From assembly GCA_963663385.2 (NCBI GenBank), contig CAXXXD010000004.1, forward strand, positions 64,001 to 128,000: a DNA stretch of 64,000 nucleotides, given 5' to 3'. Below, in pieces: positions 1-14,553 of the stretch. The notes under the pieces were generated by a model. It had not been told where the DNA came from, did no database searches, and saw only the letters and a list, made by a program, of their open reading frames with translations. Each line of letters starts with the position of its first letter. Within the stretch, counting starts at the first letter, position 1. The translations under genes and the position numbers were made by a program. The stretch comes from Oceanispirochaeta sp. Its GTDB lineage: Bacteria; Spirochaetota; Spirochaetia; DSM-2461.

Positions 1-669
1 TTCAAGCTCTATCCCGGTGAGGTCCTGGGTATAACAGGCGTTGTGGGAGCCGGAAAATCCGAGCTGGGGCATGCTCTTTTCGGTGCCGTCAAAAGGGCGG
101 GAGGCGAGATCCTGCTGGACGGGAAGCCCCGCCGTATCAGATCGCCCCGGGACGCCGTATCCGCCGGCATAGGGATGACCACCGAAGACAGGAAGGAAAC
201 AGGGCTTCTGCTGGACGATTCGATCAGGCGCAACCTGTCCCTGGCATCTCTGAAGAGGATCTTGAAAAACGGTATCATCCACTCCGGAAACGAGCTGGAG
301 CTTTCGGAAAGAAGCTGCAGGAATCTTGAAGTGAAGTCTACCGGACCGGAACAGCATCTGCGGTTTCTGAGCGGCGGGAATCAGCAGAAAATCGTTATAG
401 GAAAGTGGCTCGCAGCGGATCCGGATGTGCTGATAATGGATGAACCGACCCGGGGGATCGATATCGGTGCCAAACAGGCCGTCTACAGGGTTATCAGAGA
501 GCTGGCGTCCAAGGGGAAATCGGTCATCTTCCTGTCCTCCGAGCTGCCCGAAGTCCACGCCCTCTGCCACAGGATCCTTGTGATGGGACGGGGATACATT
601 CAGAGGGAGTTTTGTCCCGAAGATTCAATAGAATCCATAATGAAAGCCATGCTGGAAGGAGATGCATAA
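1..669 (+). CDS. Sugar ABC transporter ATP-binding protein (RbsA/MglA, CUT2 family), 5'-truncated by window edge
   Basis: Frame 1 is open from base 1 (FKLYPGEVLGITGVVGAGKSE). LSGGNQQK signature, VLIMDEPTRGIDIGAK Walker B region and SSELPE are typical of the C-terminal NBD of RbsA-like proteins. Confidence 0.95.
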   Translation, partial: FKLYPGEVLGITGVVGAGKSELGHALFGAVKRAGGEILLDGKPRRIRSPRDAVSAGIGMTTEDRKETGLLLDDSIRRNLSLASLKRILKNGIIHSGNELELSERSCRNLEVKSTGPEQHLRFLSGGNQQKIVIGKWLAADPDVLIMDEPTRGIDIGAKQAVYRVIRELASKGKSVIFLSSELPEVHALCHRILVMGRGYIQREFCPEDSIESIMKAMLEGDA

Positions 670-672
670 GCC

Positions 673-1632
673 ATGAACTCGGTAAATATATTAAATCAGA
701 AAAATCTGACCCAGATAACACAGAAATACGGAATCATGATTCTGTTTTCTATACTCAGTATTATAATTTCTATCGTCACACCAAACTTTCTGAACAGCCA
801 GAATATTATCAATATTCTGAGACAGAGCTCCATTATCGGAGTGATGGCCATAGGAACAACCTTTGTTATTATCGGCGGAGGATTCGATATTTCGGTGGGG
901 AGTGTGCTGGCTCTGTCTGCAGCCATGGCGCTCGGGCTGCAGGCGCATATGCACTGGGTCCTTGCCATGACTGTCGTTCTCCTTGCGGGAGCCGCCATTG
1001 GATTCTGTAACGGATTCCTTGCCGCCAAAATAGGGATAGTTCCGATCATCGCCACTTTGGGAACCCAAACCTTTGTCCGGGGGCTGACCTATATGTACAC
1101 AGGAGGATATCCCGTTACCGGAGACTCTGCGGGATTCCAGTTTATCGGCTCCGGGTATATCGGCGTTATCCCTTTCCCGATCATACTGCTTCTGACCATG
1201 GTTTTTCTCTGGCAGTTTGTATTGAGTAAAACTCCTCTCGGACGTTACAGCTGTGCTATCGGCGGGAATAAGGAGGCTACAAGGCTCTCGGGAGTCAATG
1301 TGGACTTCTATCAGATCATGACCTTTGTGATCGGCGGCGGTATGGCTTCCATGGCCGGCATTGTCTATGCAGCCCGTCTGAGTTCCGCCACTCCCCTGGC
1401 GGGACAGGGGTATGACCTTGACGCGATCGCTTCAACGGTTATCGGCGGCACCAGTGTTTCGGGAGGACAGGGCAGTATCGTAGGAACCCTGATCGGGGTT
1501 CTTCTGATGACGATTCTGAATAATATGTTCAACCTTATGGGAGTACAGGTGTATGTGCAGTACCTTGTCAAAGGAATGATTATCCTCCTGGTTGTGGGGA
1601 TCGACTCCTATTCCAAAAAGCAGAAAAACTGA
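673..1632 (+). CDS. Sugar ABC transporter permease (RbsC/BPD_transp_2 family)
   Basis: Multi-TM protein with GGFDISVGS, GRYSCAIGGNKEATRLSGV and YDLDAIASTVIGGTSVSGGQG motifs. Confidence 0.95.
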   Translation: MNSVNILNQKNLTQITQKYGIMILFSILSIIISIVTPNFLNSQNIINILRQSSIIGVMAIGTTFVIIGGGFDISVGSVLALSAAMALGLQAHMHWVLAMTVVLLAGAAIGFCNGFLAAKIGIVPIIATLGTQTFVRGLTYMYTGGYPVTGDSAGFQFIGSGYIGVIPFPIILLLTMVFLWQFVLSKTPLGRYSCAIGGNKEATRLSGVNVDFYQIMTFVIGGGMASMAGIVYAARLSSATPLAGQGYDLDAIASTVIGGTSVSGGQGSIVGTLIGVLLMTILNNMFNLMGVQVYVQYLVKGMIILLVVGIDSYSKKQKN

Positions 1633-1689
1633 AAACCCATTATAAACTTGGTGGTGACTTAAGTATGAGAACAGGATTATAATGCCGGT

Positions 1690-3045
1690 ATGACAGACAG
1701 GAAGAGCAGTGAAAACAGGATGAACCGTGTGCTTATCGTCGATGATGAGCTTGAGTACTGTCTGTCCATGAAGGATCTTTTCGAGGAGTCCGGCTATTTC
1801 TGTTCTCATTCTACTGAGCCCGAATCCGTTATCGGGCTGCTGACGTCAGGGGATATCGATATTATTCTCCTGGATCTGAAGATGCCGGGAATCAGCGGCA
1901 TCGATCTTCTTAAGAGAATCCGGATCTATGATTCCCGGATTCCGGTTATTATCGTCTCCGGACATATCGATATAGAAACGACGGTGCAGGCTATGCAGAT
2001 AGGAGCCATGAATGTCCTGAAGAAGCCTGTGCGTTTCAGCAGAATGCTCAAAGAGATATCTGGAATCCTCAATACCGGCGAAAGGCCGGCTGTTTCCAAT
2101 GGGAATCCCGTACCCGGTTCACCGATCATCTGCAGCCATAAGGGGATGCTTGAAATAATCAGTTCCCTGAAAAAAGTAGCCGAAACGAATGCTCCTGTAC
2201 TGATAACAGGTGAAAGCGGAACCGGGAAGGAGCTGATAGCCGATGAGATACACCGGCTGAGCAGGCGTTCCGACAAAAACTTTGTAAAGCTCAATTGCGC
2301 CTCCCTCCCGGAGCCGCTGCTTGAAAGCGAACTTTTCGGTCACAGGAAGGGTGCCTTTACCGGGGCAGACAAGGACAGACCGGGACGTTTCAACCTGGCT
2401 CACGGAGGCAGTATGTTTCTGGATGAGATGGGAGATATGAGCCTGATGATTCAGGCCAAACTGCTCCGGGTCCTTCAGGACCGACAGATCACAGCCCTTG
2501 GAGAAGACGAGGCAAAATCCGTTGATGTAAGGATAATAGCGGCAACGAACAAGGATCTTCATGCCATGATGAAGGCCGGGAGTTTCCGGGAGGACCTGTA
2601 CTACAGGCTGTCGGTCGTCCACTTTGAACTCCCGCCTCTTAGGGAGAGAAAAGAGGACATTCTCCTTCTGGCCGAAGCCTTCAGGGAGGAAGCCTGCCGC
2701 GAGTACGGAAGAGGGATCATCGGATTTGAAGCGGAGGTGGAGGATCTTCTCCGCTCCCATATGTGGCCGGGGAATATCAGGGAACTGAAAAACTGCATTC
2801 AGCGCTCCGTTATCTTCTGTGAAAATGAGCGGATCGCGAAAGGGGACCTTCCCTCTCAGTACCAGGATATCCAGAGCTTGAACTGGTCTGATGAATATGA
2901 ACTGGCCATTGACAATATCAACAGGGAACTTATAGAGGAAGCCCTCCGTAAGAGCCGGGGCAGGAAGTCAAGGGCGGCGGAACTTCTGAATATAGACCGT
3001 AAAACCCTCTATAACAAGATGAAGAAACTGAACATAGGGGAATAG
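1690..3045 (+). CDS. Sigma-54-dependent response regulator (NtrC/AtoC family: REC + AAA+ + Fis HTH)
   Basis: VLIVDDE and LLDLKMPG receiver; GESGTGKEL Walker A; ESELFGHRKGAFTGA (GAFTGA loop); WPGNIRELKN; C-terminal AAELLNIDRKTLYNKMK HTH. Confidence 0.95.
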   Translation: MTDRKSSENRMNRVLIVDDELEYCLSMKDLFEESGYFCSHSTEPESVIGLLTSGDIDIILLDLKMPGISGIDLLKRIRIYDSRIPVIIVSGHIDIETTVQAMQIGAMNVLKKPVRFSRMLKEISGILNTGERPAVSNGNPVPGSPIICSHKGMLEIISSLKKVAETNAPVLITGESGTGKELIADEIHRLSRRSDKNFVKLNCASLPEPLLESELFGHRKGAFTGADKDRPGRFNLAHGGSMFLDEMGDMSLMIQAKLLRVLQDRQITALGEDEAKSVDVRIIAATNKDLHAMMKAGSFREDLYYRLSVVHFELPPLRERKEDILLLAEAFREEACREYGRGIIGFEAEVEDLLRSHMWPGNIRELKNCIQRSVIFCENERIAKGDLPSQYQDIQSLNWSDEYELAIDNINRELIEEALRKSRGRKSRAAELLNIDRKTLYNKMKKLNIGE

Positions 3046-3053
3046 GCCGGGGT

Positions 3054-4862
3054 ATGGACGAAGTTCTTCAGATGAATGATATTCATCATTCCTATGGGGT
3101 GACAAAGGCGCTGAACGGAGTTGATTTCAAGCTCCGCAGGGGGGAATTCCATGCTCTGGCAGGAGATCACAGAGCCGGAAAATCCACTCTGATCAAGCTG
3201 CTCTGCGGTGCCATCCGCTGCCGCCAGGGGGAGATCGTGCTCCCTTCCGGTATCTACTCCTCCCTGACACCGCGCAGGGCCAACCGGGAGGGGATAGGCG
3301 TTGTTTTTCAGGAGGAGTCTCTGGTTCCCTCCATGAATGCCGTTGATAATCTCTTCTCCGGACATTACAGGCTCTTTCCGGGCGGAACGATCCGCTATAA
3401 GCAGCATGCGGAAGAACTTAGACGTTTCTGCTCCTCCATGGATCTGGACCTGGATCTTAACAGAGCTGTTTCCCAGATCGATAAGGTTCATCAGCATCTG
3501 ATTGAATTTATAAGGGCAATCTATTTTAATCCCTCGATTCTGATTCTGGATGAGATCTCCATTCGGTTTAACCCCAGAGAGATGGACCTTATCTACAGAC
3601 AGGTTCTGAAGATGAAAAAGGAAGGTCTCGGGATCATCTATATCTCCCATGATATGGATGAGGTTATGGAATTCGCGGACAGGGTGACCATTCTCAAGGA
3701 CGGGCAGTGCAGAAAGACCGAGAGCATCGGGAATCTTAACAAGATGCAGCTCTACTATATGACCTACTCCCGGGAACTCTCCAGAAAAGAACTCCGACAG
3801 GCAAATCTTGAACTTTACAAATTCAAAAAATACAACGAAGCCGTCATCCGTAATATCCCGGTGGGCGCTGTCATCCTGGATAAGGACCGGAAAATCTATC
3901 AGGTAAACGAAAAAGCCTCTTCCCTGCTGCGCTTCAAGGGGGAAAATGAGGTTGATCTCGAAAGAGTCCTGAGAGATCTGCGACCCGATGACGCAGATGA
4001 AATCAGACAGGCCATCAAAGAGGAGAGAAGGCTTCATCTTGTGAGTGTTGCCTATGGTGAGGACAGTTTCTATGACCTGCTCTGTACCCCATTCAGCGGA
4101 GATGACGGAGAAGCCGGCGGGACAATCATACTGATTGATGACAGAACGGAAGCGCTGAAGCTTCGCGATTACATGAGGCGGACAGAGCAGATTTCATCCA
4201 TCGCCGAGTTGGCGGCCGGCGTTGCTCATGAGATCAATAATCCCCTGAATATAATTCTGAATTATATGGATCTGCTTTCCATGGCCATTCAGGACGAACC
4301 GTCTGTGGGCAGGCTGAAAAAGATTGAAAGGGAGATACAGAGGATTACCGAAATCACAGGAAGTCTCCTCTCCTTTTCCAGGGTCAAAGATACGGAAATG
4401 ACGGAGTGTGACTTGAAGCAGGCTCTTGAAGAGGCTCTTCTTCTTCTGAAATACCGTATTGAGTCAAGAGAGGTCAAACTTCTTCTCGACCTGCCGGAAG
4501 ATCCTGTCATGATTTATGGAAACATGAATAAGCTGGAGCAGGTCTTCATCAATCTTATTATGAACAGCCTGGATGTCCTGCCCCCTATGGGGGAGATAAG
4601 GGTCCATATCGACAGCAGTGAGGATACCGTGAGGGCGACTTTTTCGGACAACGGCCCCGGTATTGATGAAACCATTGTCGACGATATTTTCAATCCCTTC
4701 TTCACGACCAAGCTGGCGGATAAGAATTCCGGCCTGGGGCTTTCCGTATCGCTTCATATCATGTCCGAGCACAGGGGAACGATCGAATATTTGCGGGGAA
4801 ACGGTTTGACCACCTTCCTGCTGAGTTTTTCAAATACGGTCGGCCCGGGTGTAGTCGAATGA
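3054..4862 (+). CDS. Hybrid protein: ABC-type nucleotide-binding domain + PAS + histidine kinase (HisKA/HATPase)
   Basis: N-terminal RbsA-like NBD (GDHRAGKST, VVFQE Q-loop, ILILDEIS, YISHD). PAS start at VIRNIPVGAVILD...VNEKA. H-box AAGVAHEINNPL, N-box QVFINLIMNS, DNGPGI, FNPFFTTK, SGLGLSV. No hydrophobic TM stretch. Confidence 0.9.
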   Translation: MDEVLQMNDIHHSYGVTKALNGVDFKLRRGEFHALAGDHRAGKSTLIKLLCGAIRCRQGEIVLPSGIYSSLTPRRANREGIGVVFQEESLVPSMNAVDNLFSGHYRLFPGGTIRYKQHAEELRRFCSSMDLDLDLNRAVSQIDKVHQHLIEFIRAIYFNPSILILDEISIRFNPREMDLIYRQVLKMKKEGLGIIYISHDMDEVMEFADRVTILKDGQCRKTESIGNLNKMQLYYMTYSRELSRKELRQANLELYKFKKYNEAVIRNIPVGAVILDKDRKIYQVNEKASSLLRFKGENEVDLERVLRDLRPDDADEIRQAIKEERRLHLVSVAYGEDSFYDLLCTPFSGDDGEAGGTIILIDDRTEALKLRDYMRRTEQISSIAELAAGVAHEINNPLNIILNYMDLLSMAIQDEPSVGRLKKIEREIQRITEITGSLLSFSRVKDTEMTECDLKQALEEALLLLKYRIESREVKLLLDLPEDPVMIYGNMNKLEQVFINLIMNSLDVLPPMGEIRVHIDSSEDTVRATFSDNGPGIDETIVDDIFNPFFTTKLADKNSGLGLSVSLHIMSEHRGTIEYLRGNGLTTFLLSFSNTVGPGVVE

Positions 4863-4995: not shown

Positions 4996-5826
4996 GTGAG
5001 AACCAGTAACAGTTTATTATCAGCTTCCCTGCAGGAAAGACAGAAAGAACTGTCGTGTATCTTTTCTGTTGTCCGGATCCTTGTGATACCTGCCATCTCG
5101 ATTAATGCGGCGTTAGAGAAAATAGCGGAAGCTGTCCCTCAGGGTTTTACGTCTCCTGAAAAAACTCAAATTCAAATAAAATATAAGAGTTTCAATATTA
5201 CGTATGGCGCTTCCGGTAAAGTCATTGATTCTATTGAGGAGCCCTTAAAAGATGAAGCTGGAGAGGCTGGTTCCATTTGGGTCGGTATAGTGGAGCAGCA
5301 GAATAATAACACCTCCAGCCTCCTGCAGGAGGAGAAAGAGCTTCTTAAAGGATTAGCAGTTGTCTCCTCAGCAGTTATTGCCCGTATTGAAATGGAGAAT
5401 TCTCTCGCTGAAGCATTCAGCGAGCTGAAGCAGAAAAATTCAGCTTTAAGAGAAATACTGTTCCAGGTCGAGTCAGAAAAAAGAAGGCACTATGATGTAT
5501 TGTGTCATTTTGTGGAAAACCGGATTTTCCCTCTACTGGATGAGAAAGTTACCGATTCCAGGCAGATGCACATAATGAAAGAGATGGAGGAGGAACTGCT
5601 GTTTTCTCAACCAAACAAAGATCTCATCGATCAACTATCTCTCCTTTCTCCCCGGGAGTACCAGATCTGCAGCTATATAAAAGCGGGAATGACCAATAAA
5701 GAAATCGGAGAACTATTGAAGTTGTCATCTTCCACAGTAGAAAAACATCGTCATAGTATTAGAAAAAAGCTGAACCTGACAAATCGGAATATAAATCTGT
5801 CTATTTATTTGCGGAACCTCAAGTAA
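4996..5826 (+). CDS. LuxR-family HTH transcriptional regulator with N-terminal GAF-like region
   Basis: C-terminal LSPREYQICSYIKAGMTNKEIGELLKLSSSTVEKHRHSIRKKL LuxR HTH; N-terminal LQERQKELSC.. sensory-type segment; GTG start. Confidence 0.88.
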   Translation: MRTSNSLLSASLQERQKELSCIFSVVRILVIPAISINAALEKIAEAVPQGFTSPEKTQIQIKYKSFNITYGASGKVIDSIEEPLKDEAGEAGSIWVGIVEQQNNNTSSLLQEEKELLKGLAVVSSAVIARIEMENSLAEAFSELKQKNSALREILFQVESEKRRHYDVLCHFVENRIFPLLDEKVTDSRQMHIMKEMEEELLFSQPNKDLIDQLSLLSPREYQICSYIKAGMTNKEIGELLKLSSSTVEKHRHSIRKKLNLTNRNINLSIYLRNLK

Positions 5827-5965: not shown

Positions 5966-6382
5966 ATGAAAATTATTAATCGTATATTGAATTCCCATGA
6001 TATAGATAGGATCAGCGGATTTCTTAAACTGGCCACTATGGGTGGAAAAGAAAAGTTCAGAACACTCTGTGAATTGAAAAAGGATCTGGAGACAGCTGCA
6101 ATCCTTGAACCGGAGGATATGCCCCCGAATGTTGTAACTATGAACAGCGAGGTTCGTATTGAAGGGGTAACTTCTGACGGGTCTACCGTTGTAAAACTGG
6201 TATTTCCGCAGGAAGTCAGTTCCAAAGAGGGGAATATTTCCCTCCTGGCTCCCCTGGGCGCCGCATTACTGGGGCGTCAAAGAGGAGATCTTATCTCGTA
6301 CTCGGCCCCGGGGGGAGAAATAAAAGTTAAAATAGACGCTATTATATTTCAACCGGAATCAAATGGAGATTTTATTTCCTGA
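5966..6382 (+). CDS. rnk: GreA/GreB-family factor, Rnk-like (regulator of nucleoside diphosphate kinase)
   Basis: PEDMPPNVVTMNSEV and ISLLAPLGAALLG...GD motifs; short N-terminal coiled coil; ends FQPES as in Rnk. Confidence 0.8.
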   Translation: MKIINRILNSHDIDRISGFLKLATMGGKEKFRTLCELKKDLETAAILEPEDMPPNVVTMNSEVRIEGVTSDGSTVVKLVFPQEVSSKEGNISLLAPLGAALLGRQRGDLISYSAPGGEIKVKIDAIIFQPESNGDFIS

Positions 6383-6733: not shown

Positions 6734-7042
6734 AACCGTTTAAAAAACATATTTAATACTCTGAATACGTCCCGGGCTATCAGAGGGTTGAAGCGTCCGG
6801 TCCTGCTATGATGATCTGCCCGTATATTCATATCCCACAGACTCCTGGACAAATTTCCTGTCATTTTTTATTGTAAGGAACCCTTCTTACCAGATATAAG
6901 AAGAAAAAGAGCACTTTTCTTATGGTGATGTTTAAAAACCTTGAATTCCCCGATAAGCGGGATAAAATTATAAGTGGTGAGGGGAATAATTAAAAATATG
7001 TGGACCTGCTGCAACCAGGCAGCCACAAAAGGAGTGTATCCG

Positions 7043-7525
7043 ATGAAAAAATGGATAACGATTTTATTGATAACTATGCTTGCCATGCCTCTGTTTGCAT
7101 CAAACGGTGATACTTTGAATATCGGGGGAGTTGTTCCTCTCCAGTTGGACCTGACCGTAGACCCGGTCCCTTACAGTCCTGACGATCTGACACTTGTGGC
7201 CGGTGTGACAACTGCTGTAACAGCACTGGGGATAGCCGATATTGGTATTGCAACAAACAATACTGCCGGCTGGGAATTGTGGGTCATGTCTGCAAATGCA
7301 GGCTCCCTTCTGAATGATGACGGCGATAACGTAGACTATACTCTGACCTATGACGGGTCGGGCGGAGTTACTGCTGCTGTTCCTATAGTTGCCGGAACAA
7401 AGCTCGGCGAAGCCGGAACCGACGTTGATGAATCTGCTCTTTTATCCATCAACTACAGTCAGGAACCCGATTACCCCGCCGGTTACTACACCGATCAGCT
7501 GACTATTATTCTGAGAGCTAAATAG
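7043..7525 (+). CDS. Secreted pilin-like subunit (major pilin of a chaperone-usher-type operon, Csu/spore-coat-U-like fold)
   Basis: RBS AAAGGAG at 7028-7034 favours ATG 7043 over the ORF-track start. Signal peptide MKKWITILLITMLAMPLFA; beta-rich mature part; C-terminal PAGYYTDQLTIILRAK pilin motif; first gene before chaperone and usher. Confidence 0.78.
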   Translation: MKKWITILLITMLAMPLFASNGDTLNIGGVVPLQLDLTVDPVPYSPDDLTLVAGVTTAVTALGIADIGIATNNTAGWELWVMSANAGSLLNDDGDNVDYTLTYDGSGGVTAAVPIVAGTKLGEAGTDVDESALLSINYSQEPDYPAGYYTDQLTIILRAK

Positions 7526-7526
7526 A

Positions 7527-8429
7527 GTGTCATCCCTAAATAGGAATCTCGCCGCCTTTGCCCTTCTTTTGCTGTTGTTTCAGGGGGGATTGGCGGCTTT
7601 TACATTTTCTCCCATTTCTCAGGAATTTACTGAGGAAGGGAAAAAAAGCAGTCATGTCTTTACAATTTCCAATGATTCTGTTTCTGAAAGAATCGCAGTA
7701 AAGGTGTCTGTTTTTGAAAGATTTATGGATGAAGAGGGGAACGAAACCCTTGAATCCTGTCCCGGCGATTTTCTTATCTATCCTGTCCAGAGTATACTGA
7801 ATCCGGGTGATTCCCGCTCTGTTCGTATCAAATGGCAGGGCGGACAGGTTGGCAAAAGGGAAAAGGCTTACAGGTTGATAGCTGAACAGCTTCCCGTGGA
7901 TTTCCGGGAAGAGCAACCCCGGGACGATGGGGCCGGTATCCGTTTCACCTTTCGTTATGAAGGCAGCCTTTATGTTCTTTCTCCTGAAGCGGAAGCGGAT
8001 ATTCAACTGGTATCCATAAGCGAGATTCCTGCTGAAACAGCTGTAATAATGATTCCCAATGAAGCGGCTATCAAAGCGTATGAAGAAGCTCTGAAGAGCG
8101 TTTCTGAAGAGGACGCGGAATCAGAGGAGACTCCTGTTCTCAAACGTCCCCCGGAAATGATTGAGAAAATTATTGAAGTAGAACCGCCCCGTTTGAAACT
8201 GTTGTTTGAAAACAGTGGAACCCGCCACGCGATCCTGGGAGAATTGACCATACAGCTGGAAAGCCTTTACAGGGATTTTAAGCCTGTAATACTGAACCCG
8301 GAAGATCTGGCCGGTGTTAACGGAGAGAATATCCTGGCGGGCAGTAAGCGGTCTTTTCTGATTCCCGAACCTTCAGAGGTGAAAGGACGGGATATACGCT
8401 GGAGTTTCACCTATAAACCGGTGTACTAA
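7527..8429 (+). CDS. Fimbrial periplasmic chaperone (PapD_N-like)
   Basis: Signal peptide, then FTFSPIS..FTISN, FLIYPVQSILNPGDSRSVRIKW, EKAYRLIAEQLP, ENSGTRH and NILAGSKRSF, all typical pilus-chaperone motifs. Confidence 0.85.
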   Translation: MSSLNRNLAAFALLLLLFQGGLAAFTFSPISQEFTEEGKKSSHVFTISNDSVSERIAVKVSVFERFMDEEGNETLESCPGDFLIYPVQSILNPGDSRSVRIKWQGGQVGKREKAYRLIAEQLPVDFREEQPRDDGAGIRFTFRYEGSLYVLSPEAEADIQLVSISEIPAETAVIMIPNEAAIKAYEEALKSVSEEDAESEETPVLKRPPEMIEKIIEVEPPRLKLLFENSGTRHAILGELTIQLESLYRDFKPVILNPEDLAGVNGENILAGSKRSFLIPEPSEVKGRDIRWSFTYKPVY

Positions 8430-8456
8430 GGTCTTTTCCTGCCGAAAATTAAAGTA

Positions 8457-10808
8457 ATGGTCCGTAATTCCTGGATATTATTTATCTTTTTTTTGATCTC
8501 TCTGTCTCTTTGGGCTCAGGAAGAGATTCTGCTTCCGGTGCCTCTCTATTTAGACGGGGTTTATTCCGGAGAGATCGATCTTAAAATAAACGGTGAAGTT
8601 CTTGTCCAGGCCCGACCCCTCTTTAAACGCCTGGCTCCTCTGCTGGATCAGGAGAAGCTGGAACACAGTCTCAACAGGTGGAGACAGGTGGAATGGACTC
8701 CCTGGGAAAATCTGAATGATTCTCTTATTTCGGTTGAGTACGATGAAGCAAGGCTTATTTTTCTTGTAGAAATACCACCGGAATCCAGAAAACCGGGAAC
8801 TTATTCCCTTGTTAGAGAGGAAATTGAGCCTCCGGGCAACCTGATCAAGCCGGCTCAGCTTTCGGGCGTTGTGAATATGGAGGGATGGAGCCGGGTTTAC
8901 TATGATCCTTATCTATTAAATTATGAAATTGGTCCGGAGCTGGGCATCAATTATTCCGGTTATACCCTGGAGGCCAAAGGGGGCATTCAGTCTGAGGGCG
9001 ACCAATATTTCCTGGATTATGGAAGAGTCGTGAAGGACTTTCTTCCTCTGTCACTCAGAGCGGAAGCGGGAAATCTGACTTATGATGCAGACGGCTTTGG
9101 TCAGACCAATATGGTAGGAATCTCCCTTTATCGGAAAACTTCACTGGATATGAATTATCTGGCAGTGCCGGAACTGGGACAAACCATCTTCTTTCCCGAA
9201 CCGGCAGAGATAGAATTTCGGGTTAATGGTAAGACTGTAAGAAGAAAGCGTGTCCCTGCTGGAGTGTGGACCTTCAGGAACTTCCCCCTGAACCAAGGGC
9301 CGAATGATGTAGAGATTGTCTGGACCGACAGTTCGGGTGAGCATCGGGAGTCCTTTTTTCAAATATACGACAGCAACCTTTTAAAGAAAGGTGAAACGGA
9401 TTGGGGGATTTCGGCAGGGACAGACAGTTGGTATACCTTGAATCCTACTTTCCTTGGGCATATCAATCGGGGACTGACTCCTGTTTTCAGCGTCGGAATC
9501 AGCAGCTATTATGATTACTTTGAAAACGAGATAGCTTTGGAAATGCCTTTTGGGTTTGCTTCACCTTACGGGAATTTTCGGCTTGTCCCTTCGGCGGATA
9601 TGATCGTGGATGAAGGATATGGATCAGGAATTGTCCTGAATCACTCTTTCTCAGAAAGCAGGGCAGGTCATCTTCGTCAGAGTTTTGGCAGTTCCTGGGG
9701 ATTCCAATGGGACTCTTATGCAGCAGAAACTCAGACATACTCCTCCCGGGTTTATTATAATTACTCACCTTTGAAAGATCTTTCTCTAACTCCGGCTGTT
9801 AACTGGCAGTATGAAGCTCTCGAAAGCTTACATACGGCTGATTTTTCTGTGCGTGTCCGAAAAAGCGGGGGTGACGGCAGTACTCTATCCATACAGATCG
9901 GGATGGAATATGTTGAGGAGAAGTGGTCACCCAAAGCGATATTGACCTATTCCATCTCATTTCCCGAGTATCAACAGAGTTTTTACACTCAGGGTGATCT
10001 GAGCGGAGAAAAGATGACCCTATCCTGGAACAGGTATAGCGAAACAGATAAACAGAAGGACTACAATCTGTCGGCATCTGCCATAATTCCCGCTGATAGA
10101 GGGGACAGATTGACCGGTTCCATGAGCGGCGGATATGTTCATCCCCGGTTTAATGCAAGTCTGTCCCAGGGATTCAACGGTTTCCTGGCGGAAGAAAATT
10201 TTGAAAATACCACAACTTTGTCAGCTGGTACGGCTCTTGTTTTTGCCGACGGGGTTCTGGGTTGGTCCAGTCCGGTTAAAAGTGAGTTCGTACTCATAGA
10301 ATCCCGGATTGGTCCTTTAGCAGTGAATCCTACCTCCATGGGAGCCAAACTTGAAATGGATGGAGAAACACCTGAGATCATCAGTACCATTTCTCCCTAC
10401 CGTTATACAACACTCAGACTTGTTCCGGAGGAAATGCCTATCGGCGCTGATATAAACGATTATACAGTAAGCATTTTCCCAACTTTCCGATCAGGAACCC
10501 TGATCCGGGTGGAAGAGAAAATCTATATGTATGCCGGTGGCGTTCTATATGATGAGAATGATCGTCCCATGGATCTGATTCTGGGCAAGATTTATCCTCT
10601 CTCTGACTCCTGGATGGGGGATGAAGAGTCTGAATGGCCCCGTGAGTTCTTTACAGATGAAACAGGATATTTTGAATGCTACGGCCTTGTCCCCGGTAAA
10701 TATCGCTTGACTCAGACGGACAGGGAGTTAACCTATATAATAGAAGTAGTAGCAAATGACAGCGGTTATGAGGATCTGGGGGAGGTAAAACCTGAAAGTC
10801 GGAATTAG
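8457..10808 (+). CDS. Outer-membrane fimbrial usher protein
   Basis: 783 aa with signal peptide. Usher motifs VPAGVWTFRNFPLNQGPNDVEIVWTDSSG and DSNLLKKGETDWGISAG, amphipathic beta-strands, and C-terminal FFTDETGYFECYGLVPGKY. Confidence 0.82.
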   Translation: MVRNSWILFIFFLISLSLWAQEEILLPVPLYLDGVYSGEIDLKINGEVLVQARPLFKRLAPLLDQEKLEHSLNRWRQVEWTPWENLNDSLISVEYDEARLIFLVEIPPESRKPGTYSLVREEIEPPGNLIKPAQLSGVVNMEGWSRVYYDPYLLNYEIGPELGINYSGYTLEAKGGIQSEGDQYFLDYGRVVKDFLPLSLRAEAGNLTYDADGFGQTNMVGISLYRKTSLDMNYLAVPELGQTIFFPEPAEIEFRVNGKTVRRKRVPAGVWTFRNFPLNQGPNDVEIVWTDSSGEHRESFFQIYDSNLLKKGETDWGISAGTDSWYTLNPTFLGHINRGLTPVFSVGISSYYDYFENEIALEMPFGFASPYGNFRLVPSADMIVDEGYGSGIVLNHSFSESRAGHLRQSFGSSWGFQWDSYAAETQTYSSRVYYNYSPLKDLSLTPAVNWQYEALESLHTADFSVRVRKSGGDGSTLSIQIGMEYVEEKWSPKAILTYSISFPEYQQSFYTQGDLSGEKMTLSWNRYSETDKQKDYNLSASAIIPADRGDRLTGSMSGGYVHPRFNASLSQGFNGFLAEENFENTTTLSAGTALVFADGVLGWSSPVKSEFVLIESRIGPLAVNPTSMGAKLEMDGETPEIISTISPYRYTTLRLVPEEMPIGADINDYTVSIFPTFRSGTLIRVEEKIYMYAGGVLYDENDRPMDLILGKIYPLSDSWMGDEESEWPREFFTDETGYFECYGLVPGKYRLTQTDRELTYIIEVVANDSGYEDLGEVKPESRN

Positions 10809-11730
10809 TATTTTAATAAGTCTTTTTTTTATCTTTCCTCTGACTGCTCAGGAGACTTTCGGTTTTTACGCCCCGCCCGGAGGTATCTATCTGAATGCTT
10901 CTTTTGAAAGAGAAGAAACAGTTATTGTTTCTGTCACAGTAGAGCATGAAGGAACGGGCATTCCGTCCTGGTTTATATCTGCTTCGGCAGGAGGTTCAGC
11001 CTCCTATACCGCAAGAGAGATGGATCAGGGAAGTTATACCGTGGAATACCAGATCTATAAAAATGCTCCGCCCGCGACGGCCGTTCTAAAAGCTCCTCCG
11101 GAAACTCTGGGAATTGACAATGTTATTTCCACAGGCGATTTTTCTACTGATGCCGCCGCGGTTGAAAGGATATCCTATGACCTTTATTTTTTTATTGATT
11201 CGGGTCAGTTTACAGCTTCCGGAGAGTACCTTGATACGATAACGATCTCTCTTTACGAGGGGGACTACGGAGACAGCGGGACCCATGTCCTGGCGGATTC
11301 CTTTGATGTGGGCGTGACTGGCCGGATGGCTGAGCTGATTGATCTTTATGCCGATAAAGAATCGGACAACCGGTCTCTGGATCTGACCAGTGACTTAACG
11401 GATAAGAGAATCGCCTATGTTAATGAACGGAGTAACTGCGCCCTGGGATACGAAGTAACGATCCGCAGCAGCAATATGGCTGCAGACGCTTCGGCTACGG
11501 CGCCCTTTATGGAACAGGATGCCGGGGCAGACAGGCTGGACTACTCTCTGGAATATGACAGTGTTCCCGTTTCCGGCTGGGTTGATGGAACCGCTTTGAT
11601 CACAGATTCTTCGGGAATCACCTCGCCGGAATGGCTCACCAAGGAACTGACCCTGTCTTATACGGGCGACACGACACTGGCCCATGGAGAGTATGAAGAT
11701 ATCCTGACTCTGATTATTACAGCAAAGTAG
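10792..11730 (+). CDS. Two-domain pilus tip subunit/adhesin (CsuE-like organisation), probable CTG start
   Basis: The frame of ORF 11020-11730 is open upstream to TAA 10786-10788. GGAGG (10781-10785) lies 6 nt before CTG 10792, giving signal peptide MKVGISILISLFFIFPLTA-QE. Two pilin end motifs (SGEYLDTITISL, HGEYEDILTLIITAK) and an SCPU-like SAGGSASYTAREM..VEYQIY. Confidence 0.75.
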   Translation: MKVGISILISLFFIFPLTAQETFGFYAPPGGIYLNASFEREETVIVSVTVEHEGTGIPSWFISASAGGSASYTAREMDQGSYTVEYQIYKNAPPATAVLKAPPETLGIDNVISTGDFSTDAAAVERISYDLYFFIDSGQFTASGEYLDTITISLYEGDYGDSGTHVLADSFDVGVTGRMAELIDLYADKESDNRSLDLTSDLTDKRIAYVNERSNCALGYEVTIRSSNMAADASATAPFMEQDAGADRLDYSLEYDSVPVSGWVDGTALITDSSGITSPEWLTKELTLSYTGDTTLAHGEYEDILTLIITAK

Positions 11731-11850: not shown

Positions 11851-13326
11851 ATGGGTATTATACGTGTTCATCGGTATCCCAATCGTTTCTATCCGAACCC
11901 GAAAAGGGTTATCGCAAGGTTTTTTATAGCCGGTGGAAATGAAAGAAGTCTTCTTCTGATTCAGAAAATCCTGAAGCTCAGTGAAGATGAAGCTGCTGTC
12001 AAGCTCCAGACTGTTCTTGATAACTATGCCAACAGGCATCGGAACATTACCGATGTCTTTCAGCGCCATTTTTCCAATATTGTCCATTTTCTTGATGATT
12101 TGGGGATCGATCCGGAAAGCCTGAGCTATAAAAGGAAAATGCTGATAGGAGCATATTTTACCCATGAATACTCCATTGAATCGGCTGCCTTCTTTAACCC
12201 GTCAGTGATTGAATCTCCCAATCAGGATCATTTGGAAGACGGAGAAAAGAGGATTATTGTCAGCTTTCGGGCAACGGGGGAAGGTCATGTGTCTTCCATC
12301 GTATTCAGAAGCGGTATCATTGACCGCAATCATAACCTGCATTTCAAACCGGTCAATAATCTTGTAGAAATGCCCGAGGTGGTAAAGCGAACAGAATACA
12401 ATAAAAAGCTGTATCTGCAGAAACTTGATGAAATGAATATCCATAAAGATATCGTTGATCAGATTATGGCGCCCCTGAATGACTACTTCACCTACGGGGA
12501 TCTTCAAAGAAGCATTCGTAGTACGGTTGATAATAATACAACTCTGTCAGTTTCCAAAAAAAATGTAATCAATTCTCTGGTCTGGCTGGCGGATTCCCAT
12601 TATGAGATCCAGTTTTCCGATGATACCACTATATCCGAGAGAGTTATCTTCCCCGTTTCCGGTTCTGAAAGCAACGGGATCGAGGATGCCCGGTTCGTTC
12701 GTTTTACGGATGATGACGGGAGCGTTATCTATTACGCTCCTTTTACCGCATATAATGGGTTTACCATTCTGCCCAAGCTACTGGAAACAACGGATTTTTA
12801 TCATTTCACCACAAGGCCTCTCCATGGGAAAGGGGTTCAGAACAAGGGGCTGGCTCTGTTTCCACGGAAGATCCGGGGGCGCTATGTCATGGTGTCCCGT
12901 ATTGACGGATTCTGCAATTATATAATGTATTCAGATGATCTGCTTACCTGGAATGAGTCTGTAAAGATTCAGGAACCCGAGTACCCCTGGGAGCTGGTGC
13001 AGATCGGTAACTGCGGTTCTCCCATTGAAACCGAGAAAGGCTGGCTCCTGGTGACACACGCAGTCGGGCCAATGCGGGAGTACTGTCTGGGGATCTCTCT
13101 TCTGGATCCTGAACATCCGGAAAAAGTTATTGGAAAAGTAGAAGAGCCTATACTGATTCCCAATGATGAAGAGAGGGAGGGGTATGTTCCGAACGTTATA
13201 TACTCCTGCGGATCACTGCTTCTGGGTAATACGCTGATCATTCCCTACGGCATGTCCGACTCCGGATCAGCCTTTGCCTATTTGAAGCTGAATGAGATTC
13301 TGGAAAAACTTAAGGTAATAACATAA
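11851..13326 (+). CDS. Glycoside hydrolase family 130-like protein (long form with N-terminal extension)
   Basis: EYSIESAAFFNPS, SFRATGEGHVSSI, ESNGIEDARFVRF, KGLALFPRKI, QIGNCGSPIET, REGYVPNVIYSCG. Confidence 0.85.
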   Translation: MGIIRVHRYPNRFYPNPKRVIARFFIAGGNERSLLLIQKILKLSEDEAAVKLQTVLDNYANRHRNITDVFQRHFSNIVHFLDDLGIDPESLSYKRKMLIGAYFTHEYSIESAAFFNPSVIESPNQDHLEDGEKRIIVSFRATGEGHVSSIVFRSGIIDRNHNLHFKPVNNLVEMPEVVKRTEYNKKLYLQKLDEMNIHKDIVDQIMAPLNDYFTYGDLQRSIRSTVDNNTTLSVSKKNVINSLVWLADSHYEIQFSDDTTISERVIFPVSGSESNGIEDARFVRFTDDDGSVIYYAPFTAYNGFTILPKLLETTDFYHFTTRPLHGKGVQNKGLALFPRKIRGRYVMVSRIDGFCNYIMYSDDLLTWNESVKIQEPEYPWELVQIGNCGSPIETEKGWLLVTHAVGPMREYCLGISLLDPEHPEKVIGKVEEPILIPNDEEREGYVPNVIYSCGSLLLGNTLIIPYGMSDSGSAFAYLKLNEILEKLKVIT

Positions 13327-13374
13327 GTATTTTAGTCCTTTTGATAATTCTCCCCTGCCTAAGGAGGTGTACAC

Positions 13375-14553
13375 ATGAAGATTGCCTGTATCGGGAACTA
13401 TCCTCCCCGGGAGTGCGGTATTGCCACATTTTCCTCCAACTTTGCCAATGCGATCCTTGACTCCGATGGATGGGCTTCGGATGAATCAAACGATATGTAT
13501 ATAATTGCCATGAGTGATCCGGGCAGGCAATATGATTATCCGGATATAGTTGTTCAATCAATTCAGCAGAACGAACTGCGGGATTACCAGAAAGCAGCCG
13601 ACTATATTAATTCCTGTAATACAGACGTTTGTTTTCTTCAGCATGAGTTCGGTATATACGGCGGAAACAGAGGAGTTTATATTCTATCCCTGCTCCACCA
13701 GCTGAAGGTGCCCTTTATCCCTATTTTCCATACAGTGCTGAAAAAGCCTTCAGAAATTGAGCGGAATATCATTATGGAAATCAGCAGGAGAGCGGCCGGA
13801 ATTGTTGTTATGAACAGGCTGGCAATAGGGATCCTGAATTCCGTATACAGGATACCGGAGGAAAAAATAGCGGTTATTCCCCACGGTGTTCCTGCTTTTG
13901 ACTTTAGCCGGAATCAGTTCTATAAAAAATATTTTCATCTGGAAGGCCGTAAAATCCTGATGACTTTCGGCCTTATAAGCAGAAATAAAAGCCTCGAAAC
14001 GGTTATTAATGCATTGCCCGAGGTGGTCGGGAAACATCCCGATCTGCTGTATCTGATCGTAGGGAAAACCCATCCTGCTGTTCTTCAGTCTTCAGGAGAA
14101 GAATACAGGGAGTACCTTAAGTCTCTAATTGAAAAAAACAGACTTGATGATAATGTTGTTTTTATTAACCGATTTTTGAATACCGATGAACTCCTCGGTT
14201 ATCTGAGCGCGACGGATCTCTATGTGACTCCGTATCTGAATGAAGCGCAGATTACAAGCGGGACCCTGTCCTATGCCATAGGAGCCGGGGCTGCGGTCAT
14301 TTCAACTCCGTATCTGCATGCAAAAGAGCTGATGTCGGAAGGCCGGGGCATGCTGTTCGACTTTAATGACAGTGCGGGACTGTCAGATATCCTGACGGAT
14401 CTTCTTGACCATCCCGACAAGCTCAGGACTCTGAGGAAAAACGCCTTTGAATTCGGGAAAAAAACATCATGGCCTCAAGTGGGAAAGCAATATCTGGATC
14501 TCTCTGCAACAGTTGTAAAGAGTTCTGTCCGGACCGATATCTCTGTTATGTAG
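13375..14553 (+). CDS. Glycosyltransferase family 4 protein
   Basis: GNYPPRECGIATF, LQHEFGIYGG, TFGLISRNKSLE, VTPYLNEAQITSGTLSYA, VISTPY; RBS AAGGAGG. Confidence 0.9.
   Translation: MKIACIGNYPPRECGIATFSSNFANAILDSDGWASDESNDMYIIAMSDPGRQYDYPDIVVQSIQQNELRDYQKAADYINSCNTDVCFLQHEFGIYGGNRGVYILSLLHQLKVPFIPIFHTVLKKPSEIERNIIMEISRRAAGIVVMNRLAIGILNSVYRIPEEKIAVIPHGVPAFDFSRNQFYKKYFHLEGRKILMTFGLISRNKSLETVINALPEVVGKHPDLLYLIVGKTHPAVLQSSGEEYREYLKSLIEKNRLDDNVVFINRFLNTDELLGYLSATDLYVTPYLNEAQITSGTLSYAIGAGAAVISTPYLHAKELMSEGRGMLFDFNDSAGLSDILTDLLDHPDKLRTLRKNAFEFGKKTSWPQVGKQYLDLSATVVKSSVRTDISVM

Follow-up and report, generated by a model that had tools for sequence, protein, structure and literature searches.

The first genes of the window analyzed here, a stretch of 64,000 nucleotides from Oceanispirochaeta sp. 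(C4:64001-128000 of the source genome, G000), raise the question of what the motor domain of a sugar importer does at the front of a soluble histidine kinase. Four co-oriented open reading frames (ORFs), separated by gaps of 3, 57 and 8 nucleotides, encode a sugar ATP-binding cassette (ABC) ATPase, a permease, an NtrC-type regulator and a kinase of 602 amino acids that carries its own nucleotide-binding domain (NBD). This order had been claimed in a preliminary description and was confirmed when the sequence was read again. The fusion kinase is part of a real, widespread and apparently unstudied signalling module. In the mechanism that we favour, with a probability of roughly 0.55, the kinase dimer takes the place of the motor on the permease dimer, and the assembly acts as a receptor that activates the sigma-54 regulator when a sugar-loaded binding protein arrives. 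The regulatory circuit is well supported, and the docking mechanism is plausible.

All Pfam matches on the 602-amino-acid protein lie above the cut-off (ABC_tran at residues 20-167, PAS_4 at 267-367, HisKA at 384-444 and HATPase_c at 492-589), confirming an ABC NBD and a PAS domain followed by a complete HisKA/HATPase. The H-box His and the N, G1, F and G2 boxes of a histidine kinase are present, and His392 of the HisKA domain is invariant in the family alignment (139/139 sequences at about 50% identity, 580 to 650 amino acids long, query included). The expected lack of a transmembrane (TM) helix was upheld, with a peak 19-residue hydropathy of 1.18 versus 2.28 for the permease. In the AlphaFold model (mean predicted local distance difference test score [pLDDT] of 82, predicted TM-score [pTM] of 0.44) a confident NBD is followed by a low-confidence hinge at 240-254, a helix at 247-267 and a PAS fold, and a single long helix, 365-411, leads into the phospho-acceptor His. 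Family members are labelled 'AtoS' or 'ATP-binding protein' in databases. The kinase scores 199.8 bits against the AtoS model (NF008468), whose cut-off is 646, indicating that it is not AtoS, and none of the 25 NCBIfam matches listed covers the fusion.

The fusion is not unique to this assembly. Relatives with the same domain architecture are numerous: the best 120 homologues are all full length, each with the query's domains and a coverage of 95% or more, and a profile search of 50%-identity representatives returned mostly full-length proteins among its best 150. More than 130 clusters at 50% identity are full length, mostly from Spirochaetota where a name is given, and the 139 family sequences can be aligned end to end. 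Nine matches of odd length contain ABC, PAS and kinase domains only, and in a weak search no NBD fused to another output was found among the best 120 of 159 matches in longer proteins (1055 to 3010 amino acids). A full-length match was detected in at least 12 of 300 other genomes of the phylum, which is a lower bound, with four candidates scored per genome. Among 80 loci from named genomes, 57 carry the fusion (three of them truncated by contig ends) and the remaining 23 match the kinase part only; the fusion loci are mostly titled Spirochaetota, with a few of Moduliflexus type, Gynuella and Planctomycetota. An assembly chimera or a lost stop codon was ruled out by this full-length family and by an intact frame, free of indels, in the contigs of 3/3 runs from three studies, of which two may represent the source sample; in one the gene shows 12 substitutions and no indels. 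The source genome itself holds five full-length paralogues. The most divergent of them (C1:180956-189000) is linked to an importer with two permeases, an arrangement shared by three of the 69 linked importers in all.

The adjacency of homologues to CUT2 permeases and NtrC genes is conserved. The neighbourhoods of 78 fusion genes were scored, with L056 left out as a duplicate of L033 (L-numbers denote the loci of relatives). Among the 75 genes with sufficient flank, an NtrC gene lies directly upstream in 74/75 cases by script and in 75/75 when L099, read by eye, is counted. A permease was found within 7.5 kb in 44 of the 45 loci with both flanks; that of L053 is not of CUT2 type, leaving a CUT2 permease in 43/45. 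The contrast within the source genome is the fairer test, because related genomes are not independent: a CUT2 permease lies that close to 5/5 fusion kinases versus 2/44 other kinases (p = 1e-5), against a background in which 10% of the genome falls within that distance of a CUT2 permease. No recurring adaptor gene was seen in the fusion loci.

The regulator has the features of an NtrC-type sigma-54 activator, namely the receiver Asp, GAFTGA, a Fis helix-turn-helix (HTH), rpoN in the same genome and a -24/-12 site at the target. In the protein these are an acidic pair at residues 18-19, Asp62 and Lys111-112 in the receiver, GAFTGA at 221 in the AAA+ domain, and the Fis HTH. The operon starts upstream of the window, where the sigma-54 promoter-like site, the binding-protein gene and a GHL10-like gene precede the ATPase. 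Scored against the sigma-54 consensus, sites matching at 11/12 or better precede 47/69 linked importer operons versus 0/69 on the opposite strand, a count in which the operon of the window was scored as a miss because the script misassigned its first gene. In the source genome such a site precedes 4/5 linked operons versus 0/31 other CUT2 operons (p = 8e-5). Tentative enhancer palindromes were found in 23/50 cases versus a shuffled mean of 7.6, with a pattern picked after viewing the data. Since sigma-54 sites precede the linked operons, the kinase and NtrC pair very likely turns on the importer operon, and the promoter-like site in front of the importer agrees with the output proposed in the preliminary description.

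The ABC domain of the kinase has a clear source. Its best ABC matches are the N-terminal halves of YtfR, XylG, AlsA, MglA, AraG and RbsA, and a FastTree phylogeny of 214 domains groups all 77 kinase NBDs in a single clade (SH-like support of 99) that nests among the NBD1 halves of tandem ATPases, with NBD2 and the single-domain ATPases falling elsewhere. This tree indicates a single origin from NBD1 of RbsA-type ATPases. As a single NBD1-like domain with no tandem pair and no intact LSGGNQQK, the domain falls outside the definition of a CUT2 transport ATPase, while the ATP-binding residues of NBD1 (A-loop, Walker A, Q-loop and Walker B) are present. The source kinase has Walker A GDHRAGKS, Q86, Walker B D166/E167, an altered D-loop, H199 as the H-switch and a degenerate signature. 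Compared with 63 NBD1 domains from the same loci, kinase NBDs keep the A-loop aromatic, Walker A Lys, Q-loop Gln, ENI motif and Walker B. The Walker A Asn, present in 100% of NBD1 domains, is His in 94% of kinase NBDs; the D-loop has lost its Pro and acquired Lys/Arg, and the H-switch is found in 68% versus 100%. Over the 139 members, the ATP-binding residues are counted as Walker A Lys 135, Q-loop Gln 109, Walker B Asp 134 and Glu 124, and the altered motifs of dimer closure and hydrolysis as His39 98, D-loop K/R 104 and H-switch 85. The signature is degenerate, as in NBD1, so a homodimer of kinase NBDs would be without any canonical signature. Judged by its motifs, the kinase NBD probably binds ATP and hydrolyses little.

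The preliminary description proposed that the NBD docks on the neighbouring permease beside or in place of the normal ATPase. Docking itself is suggested by a weak complex prediction together with indirect genomic signs. The complex of kinase and permease was modelled as two permeases plus one NBD and scored 0.59 versus 0.04 for the best control; 91% or more of the contacts recur between runs, with a partner pLDDT of at least 78. In the calibration, 116/157 solved pairs and 2/215 mismatched pairs attained the mark, and scores up to 0.60 comprise 18 solved pairs and both mismatches, which places 0.59 in the weak band. No RbsA-family chain was found among the best 60 PDB matches.

Co-divergence was measured on 39 cassettes, with 18 ambiguous loci skipped and the signal of kinase, PAS and activator removed. 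NBD distances track those of the permease (r = 0.21, p = 0.014), NBD2 (r = 0.26, p = 0.005) and the binding protein (r = 0.21, p = 0.004), among 35 tests per set, uncorrected; kinase core and PAS distances show no such tracking. A single permease gene is present in 66/69 linked importers versus 21/29 unlinked operons in the source genome (p = 0.002, kin not being independent), and this bias fits a symmetric kinase dimer on a symmetric permease dimer. Linked permeases more often have the canonical Glu in the EAA loop (31/39 versus 9/21), but after dereplication the difference fell to p = 0.05-0.17 and was not used.

In L065 and L066 the kinase adjoins a binding protein and a permease with an intact EAA loop, and no ATPase lies beside it. 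The pair is closest to the cassette at C4:700972-704570 of the source genome and to that of L064, minus the ATPase of the C4 cassette. A sigma-54 site is located downstream of these two genes; in L065 the importer behind this site is a different one, equipped with a single-domain ATPase. When the ATPase was sought in the genomes of L065 and L066, the top matches had 46-47% identity, versus 55-60% among other such cassettes; three of the 14 ATPase matches in G301 were examined, each having its own permeases. L113 and L114 hold an extra ATPase-less pair, with no sigma-54 site before either gene group. When metagenomes were scanned with the L065 kinase, a single one of the 80 loci gave a full-length relative, the others matching in the NBD only, and the ATPase-less arrangement was not replicated there. 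The ATPase-less pairs are candidates for dedicated receptor permeases.

An ABC permease dimer has just two coupling helices. This architecture and the ATPase-less lineage favour replacement of the ATPase over a sensing of transport cycling beside it. In the favoured mechanism each NBD of the kinase dimer would engage one coupling helix of the permease homodimer. Docking of the binding protein would move the permease and hence the NBD pair in its ATP-loaded state, which would hydrolyse little or nothing, and the signal would run through the conserved helix 247-267 and the PAS domain along the long helix 365-411 to His392. Phospho-NtrC would then activate the promoter at C4:60896, serving the binding protein, the hydrolase-like gene, the ATPase, the permease and possibly the regulator genes. 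Beyond the anatomy, the linkage and the promoter-like sites, we infer each of these steps. The importer may also have two modes, transporting when the ATPase occupies the coupling helices and acting as a transmembrane receptor when the kinase dimer occupies the same helices, with NBD closure as the signalling stroke and some lineages having split off a motor-less receptor permease; this extension is tentative, with somewhat less than even chances.

Several observations weigh against docking. The complex score may reflect a general likeness to ABC importers. Co-divergence is as strong with NBD2 (r = 0.26), the receiver also tracks the binding protein (r = 0.24), and the effects are smaller on 28 dereplicated cassettes. 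L065 and L066 represent one lineage (90-94% identical), and neither genome is rated at least 90% complete. In kinase NBDs the Glu next after the Q-loop Gln is gone, and position 48, which matches the permease-contact residue Arg47 of MalK, is basic (K/R) in 72/139 members versus 95% K in NBD1. L046 has the fusion kinase and NtrC with no CUT2 genes within 9 kb, and L053 has them near a branched-chain-type ABC system with no CUT2 importer. Four of the 23 kinase-only loci (Bacillota L103, L106, L107 and L110) have the same layout of NtrC gene and CUT2 operon, but their kinase is an ordinary HAMP-PAS protein of the membrane; because these loci use a membrane kinase, adjacency points to a regulatory link and not to docking. 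Finally, signalling by CbrA stayed intact when its fused transporter was deleted, as described in the accessible part of PMC7096432.

The Bacillota kinases beside CUT2 operons were considered as permease fusions and rejected, being ordinary HAMP-PAS kinases; such loci lend themselves to comparison or are a possible source of the kinase core. L046 has a 12/12 sigma-54 site upstream of a gene for a 586-amino-acid protein.

The alternative that survives best, although unlikely, is a free cytoplasmic sensor in which the PAS domain binds the sugar once imported, or else a metabolite, and the NBD, taken from the neighbouring operon, senses ATP/ADP or serves as a dimer scaffold. The Walker A Lys, Walker B Asp and Q-loop Gln, at the counts given above, outlast the putative permease-contact residue, and the PAS domain is highly divergent, as a ligand-specific domain could be. 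However, PAS distances do not follow those of the binding protein (r = 0.08, p = 0.09), whereas NBD distances track them weakly. The dispensable transporter of CbrA is in line with such a sensor, which leaves unexplained both the single-permease bias and the ATPase-less permease of L065 and L066. A general energy sensor would have no need for five paralogues, each with its own importer.

Less probable again is that the NBD reads a cycling transporter, either by pairing with NBD2 of the ATPase after NBD1 is swapped out or by binding the surface, and senses flux like BceAB-BceS. NBD2 is the natural partner of NBD1, from which the domain derives, and the part of the NBD that does not take part in docking co-diverges with NBD2 (r = 0.27, p = 0.002; dereplicated, r = 0.23, p = 0.025), albeit in tests that are uncorrected for multiple testing. 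The Asn-to-His change in Walker A presumably faces the D-loop of the partner, as pairing would have it. Ousting a covalently linked NBD1 would probably be unfavourable, however, the importers of L034, L047, L086, L093 and L096 have only a single-domain ATPase, and the permease adjacent to the kinase in L065 and L066 is without any ATPase. A vestigial passenger role for the NBD, or an assembly artefact behind the fusion, is very improbable, for despite a degenerate signature and an H-switch gone in 54/139 members, the domain forms one clade of 77 with a P-loop and Walker B nearly invariant over 139 sequences, and the artefact is already refuted by the intact frame in the contigs of three studies.

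The features are collected in the table below. The tandem ATPase measures 500 amino acids in full and starts at C4:63167, 833 nucleotides ahead of the window. The GHL10-like protein had no match in Pfam or NCBIfam; its gene accompanies this type of cassette at seven further loci and could be a clue to which sugar the importer carries.

Coordinates of the cassette and related features (plain numbers refer to the window, prefixed ones to contig C4 of the source genome or to the loci of relatives)
Feature	Coordinates	Strand	Remarks
Two tentative enhancer palindromes	C4:60650-60710		Upstream of promoter-like site
Sigma-54 -24/-12 promoter-like site	C4:60896-60911		12/12 match, 30 nt before binding-protein start
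RbsB-like binding-protein gene	C4:60942-61904		Upstream of window
GHL10-like gene, 398 aa	C4:61974-63170 (= L002:11974-13170)		Upstream of window; language-model features
Tandem CUT2 ATPase, C-terminal part (NBD2, intact LSGGNQQK)	1..669	+	Starts before the window
RbsC-like CUT2 permease, 319 aa	673..1632	+	BPD_transp_2; EAA coupling loop near residues 197-207
NtrC-type sigma-54 activator, 451 aa	1690..3045	+	REC + Sigma54_activat + HTH_8
Fusion kinase ORF, 602 aa	3054..4862	+	ABC_tran + PAS + HisKA + HATPase_c
NBD1-derived ABC domain of kinase (residues 1-240)	3054..3773	+	
Conserved linker helix (about 247-267) and PAS domain (267-367)	3774..4154	+	
HisKA (His392) and HATPase_c	4155..4862	+	N, G1, F, G2 boxes
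ATPase-less binding protein and permease pairs	L065:5474-7539; L066:273-2389; L113:4842-7006; L114:4839-6995		Beside regulators

Downstream of the kinase, after a gap of 133 nucleotides, the window encodes a LuxR-type HTH protein with an uncharacterised N-terminus (4996-5826), which was not seen recurring in the loci displayed, where no dedicated search was made, and then a GreA/GreB C-terminal (Rnk-like) protein (5966-6382). A chaperone-usher-like cluster at 6974-11730 comprises a 183-amino-acid protein with no Pfam match, a PapD_N chaperone, a weak usher match and a protein with a spore-coat-U domain. At 11851-14553 a group 1 glycosyltransferase adjoins a GH130 family protein.

If the docking mechanism holds, it would represent a new design of transmembrane receptor, in which a soluble kinase borrows an ABC permease and its binding protein through a fused motor domain. 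It would offer a self-contained system for the old question of how transporter conformation controls a kinase, and the large family that carries the labels 'AtoS' and 'ATP-binding protein' in databases would be reclassified. The mechanism predicts sugar-specific sigma-54 regulons among spirochaetes. A modular sugar biosensor would be possible, because specificity would lie in a swappable binding protein and permease.

The preliminary description knew of no characterised kinase with its own sugar-ABC NBD, and literature searches turned up none. The fusion kinase was described nowhere in full-text searches or in the accessible text of the surveys PMC4558063 and PMC8050422; subscription papers, for the most part, and supplements were outside the scope of these searches, so a mention in a domain-architecture table is possible. 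Among described systems, the nearest in circuit is BceAB-BceRS, where, according to the available parts of PMC6978683 and PMC10314905, an ABC transporter is the sensor of a kinase that controls the transporter genes. The fusion kinase is likewise genetically linked to an importer operon that, from this linkage and the promoter-like sites, it would control. In contrast, BceS is a separate membrane protein that touches BceB via TM helices, as far as those sources go, whereas the fusion kinase is soluble, has its own NBD and is paired with a sugar importer and a sigma-54 activator. With a kinase devoid of TM helices and a permease of the BPD_transp_2 family, the cassette is not a Bce-type module. 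PstSCAB-PhoU-PhoR is similar in that its kinase, which has no canonical periplasmic sensor, is under the control of a binding-protein-dependent importer, but in the accessible account (PMC6978683) the route to PhoR needs the adaptor PhoU on the working ATPase PstB, whereas here the NBD lies within the kinase.

The fused architecture has its closest parallel in the SLC5/STAC kinases CbrA and CrbS, in which a transporter-derived domain is joined to PAS-HisKA-HATPase; their fused part, unlike the soluble ABC motor domain here, is a membrane symporter that itself transports (PMC7096432, available part). SLC5 and STAC domains do not occur in the fusion kinase. The partner of the kinase also has a counterpart in CbrB, the response regulator to which CbrA signals and likewise a sigma-54 activator. 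With NBD1 of CUT2 ATPases (RbsA, MglA, AraG, XylG, AlsA and YtfR) the kinase domain shares the fold, the ATP-binding motifs, the ENI motif and the degenerate signature, but it has no NBD2 partner and runs on into a helix and a PAS domain. The kinase core and the NtrC-family partner resemble those of PAS-HisKA kinases of the AtoS/NtrB type, which differ from the fusion kinase in that it has no membrane or HAMP region and uses an ABC domain as input. Overall, the module is a variant of transporter-coupled sensing, and the sigma-54 promoter-like site before the importer operon is new here.

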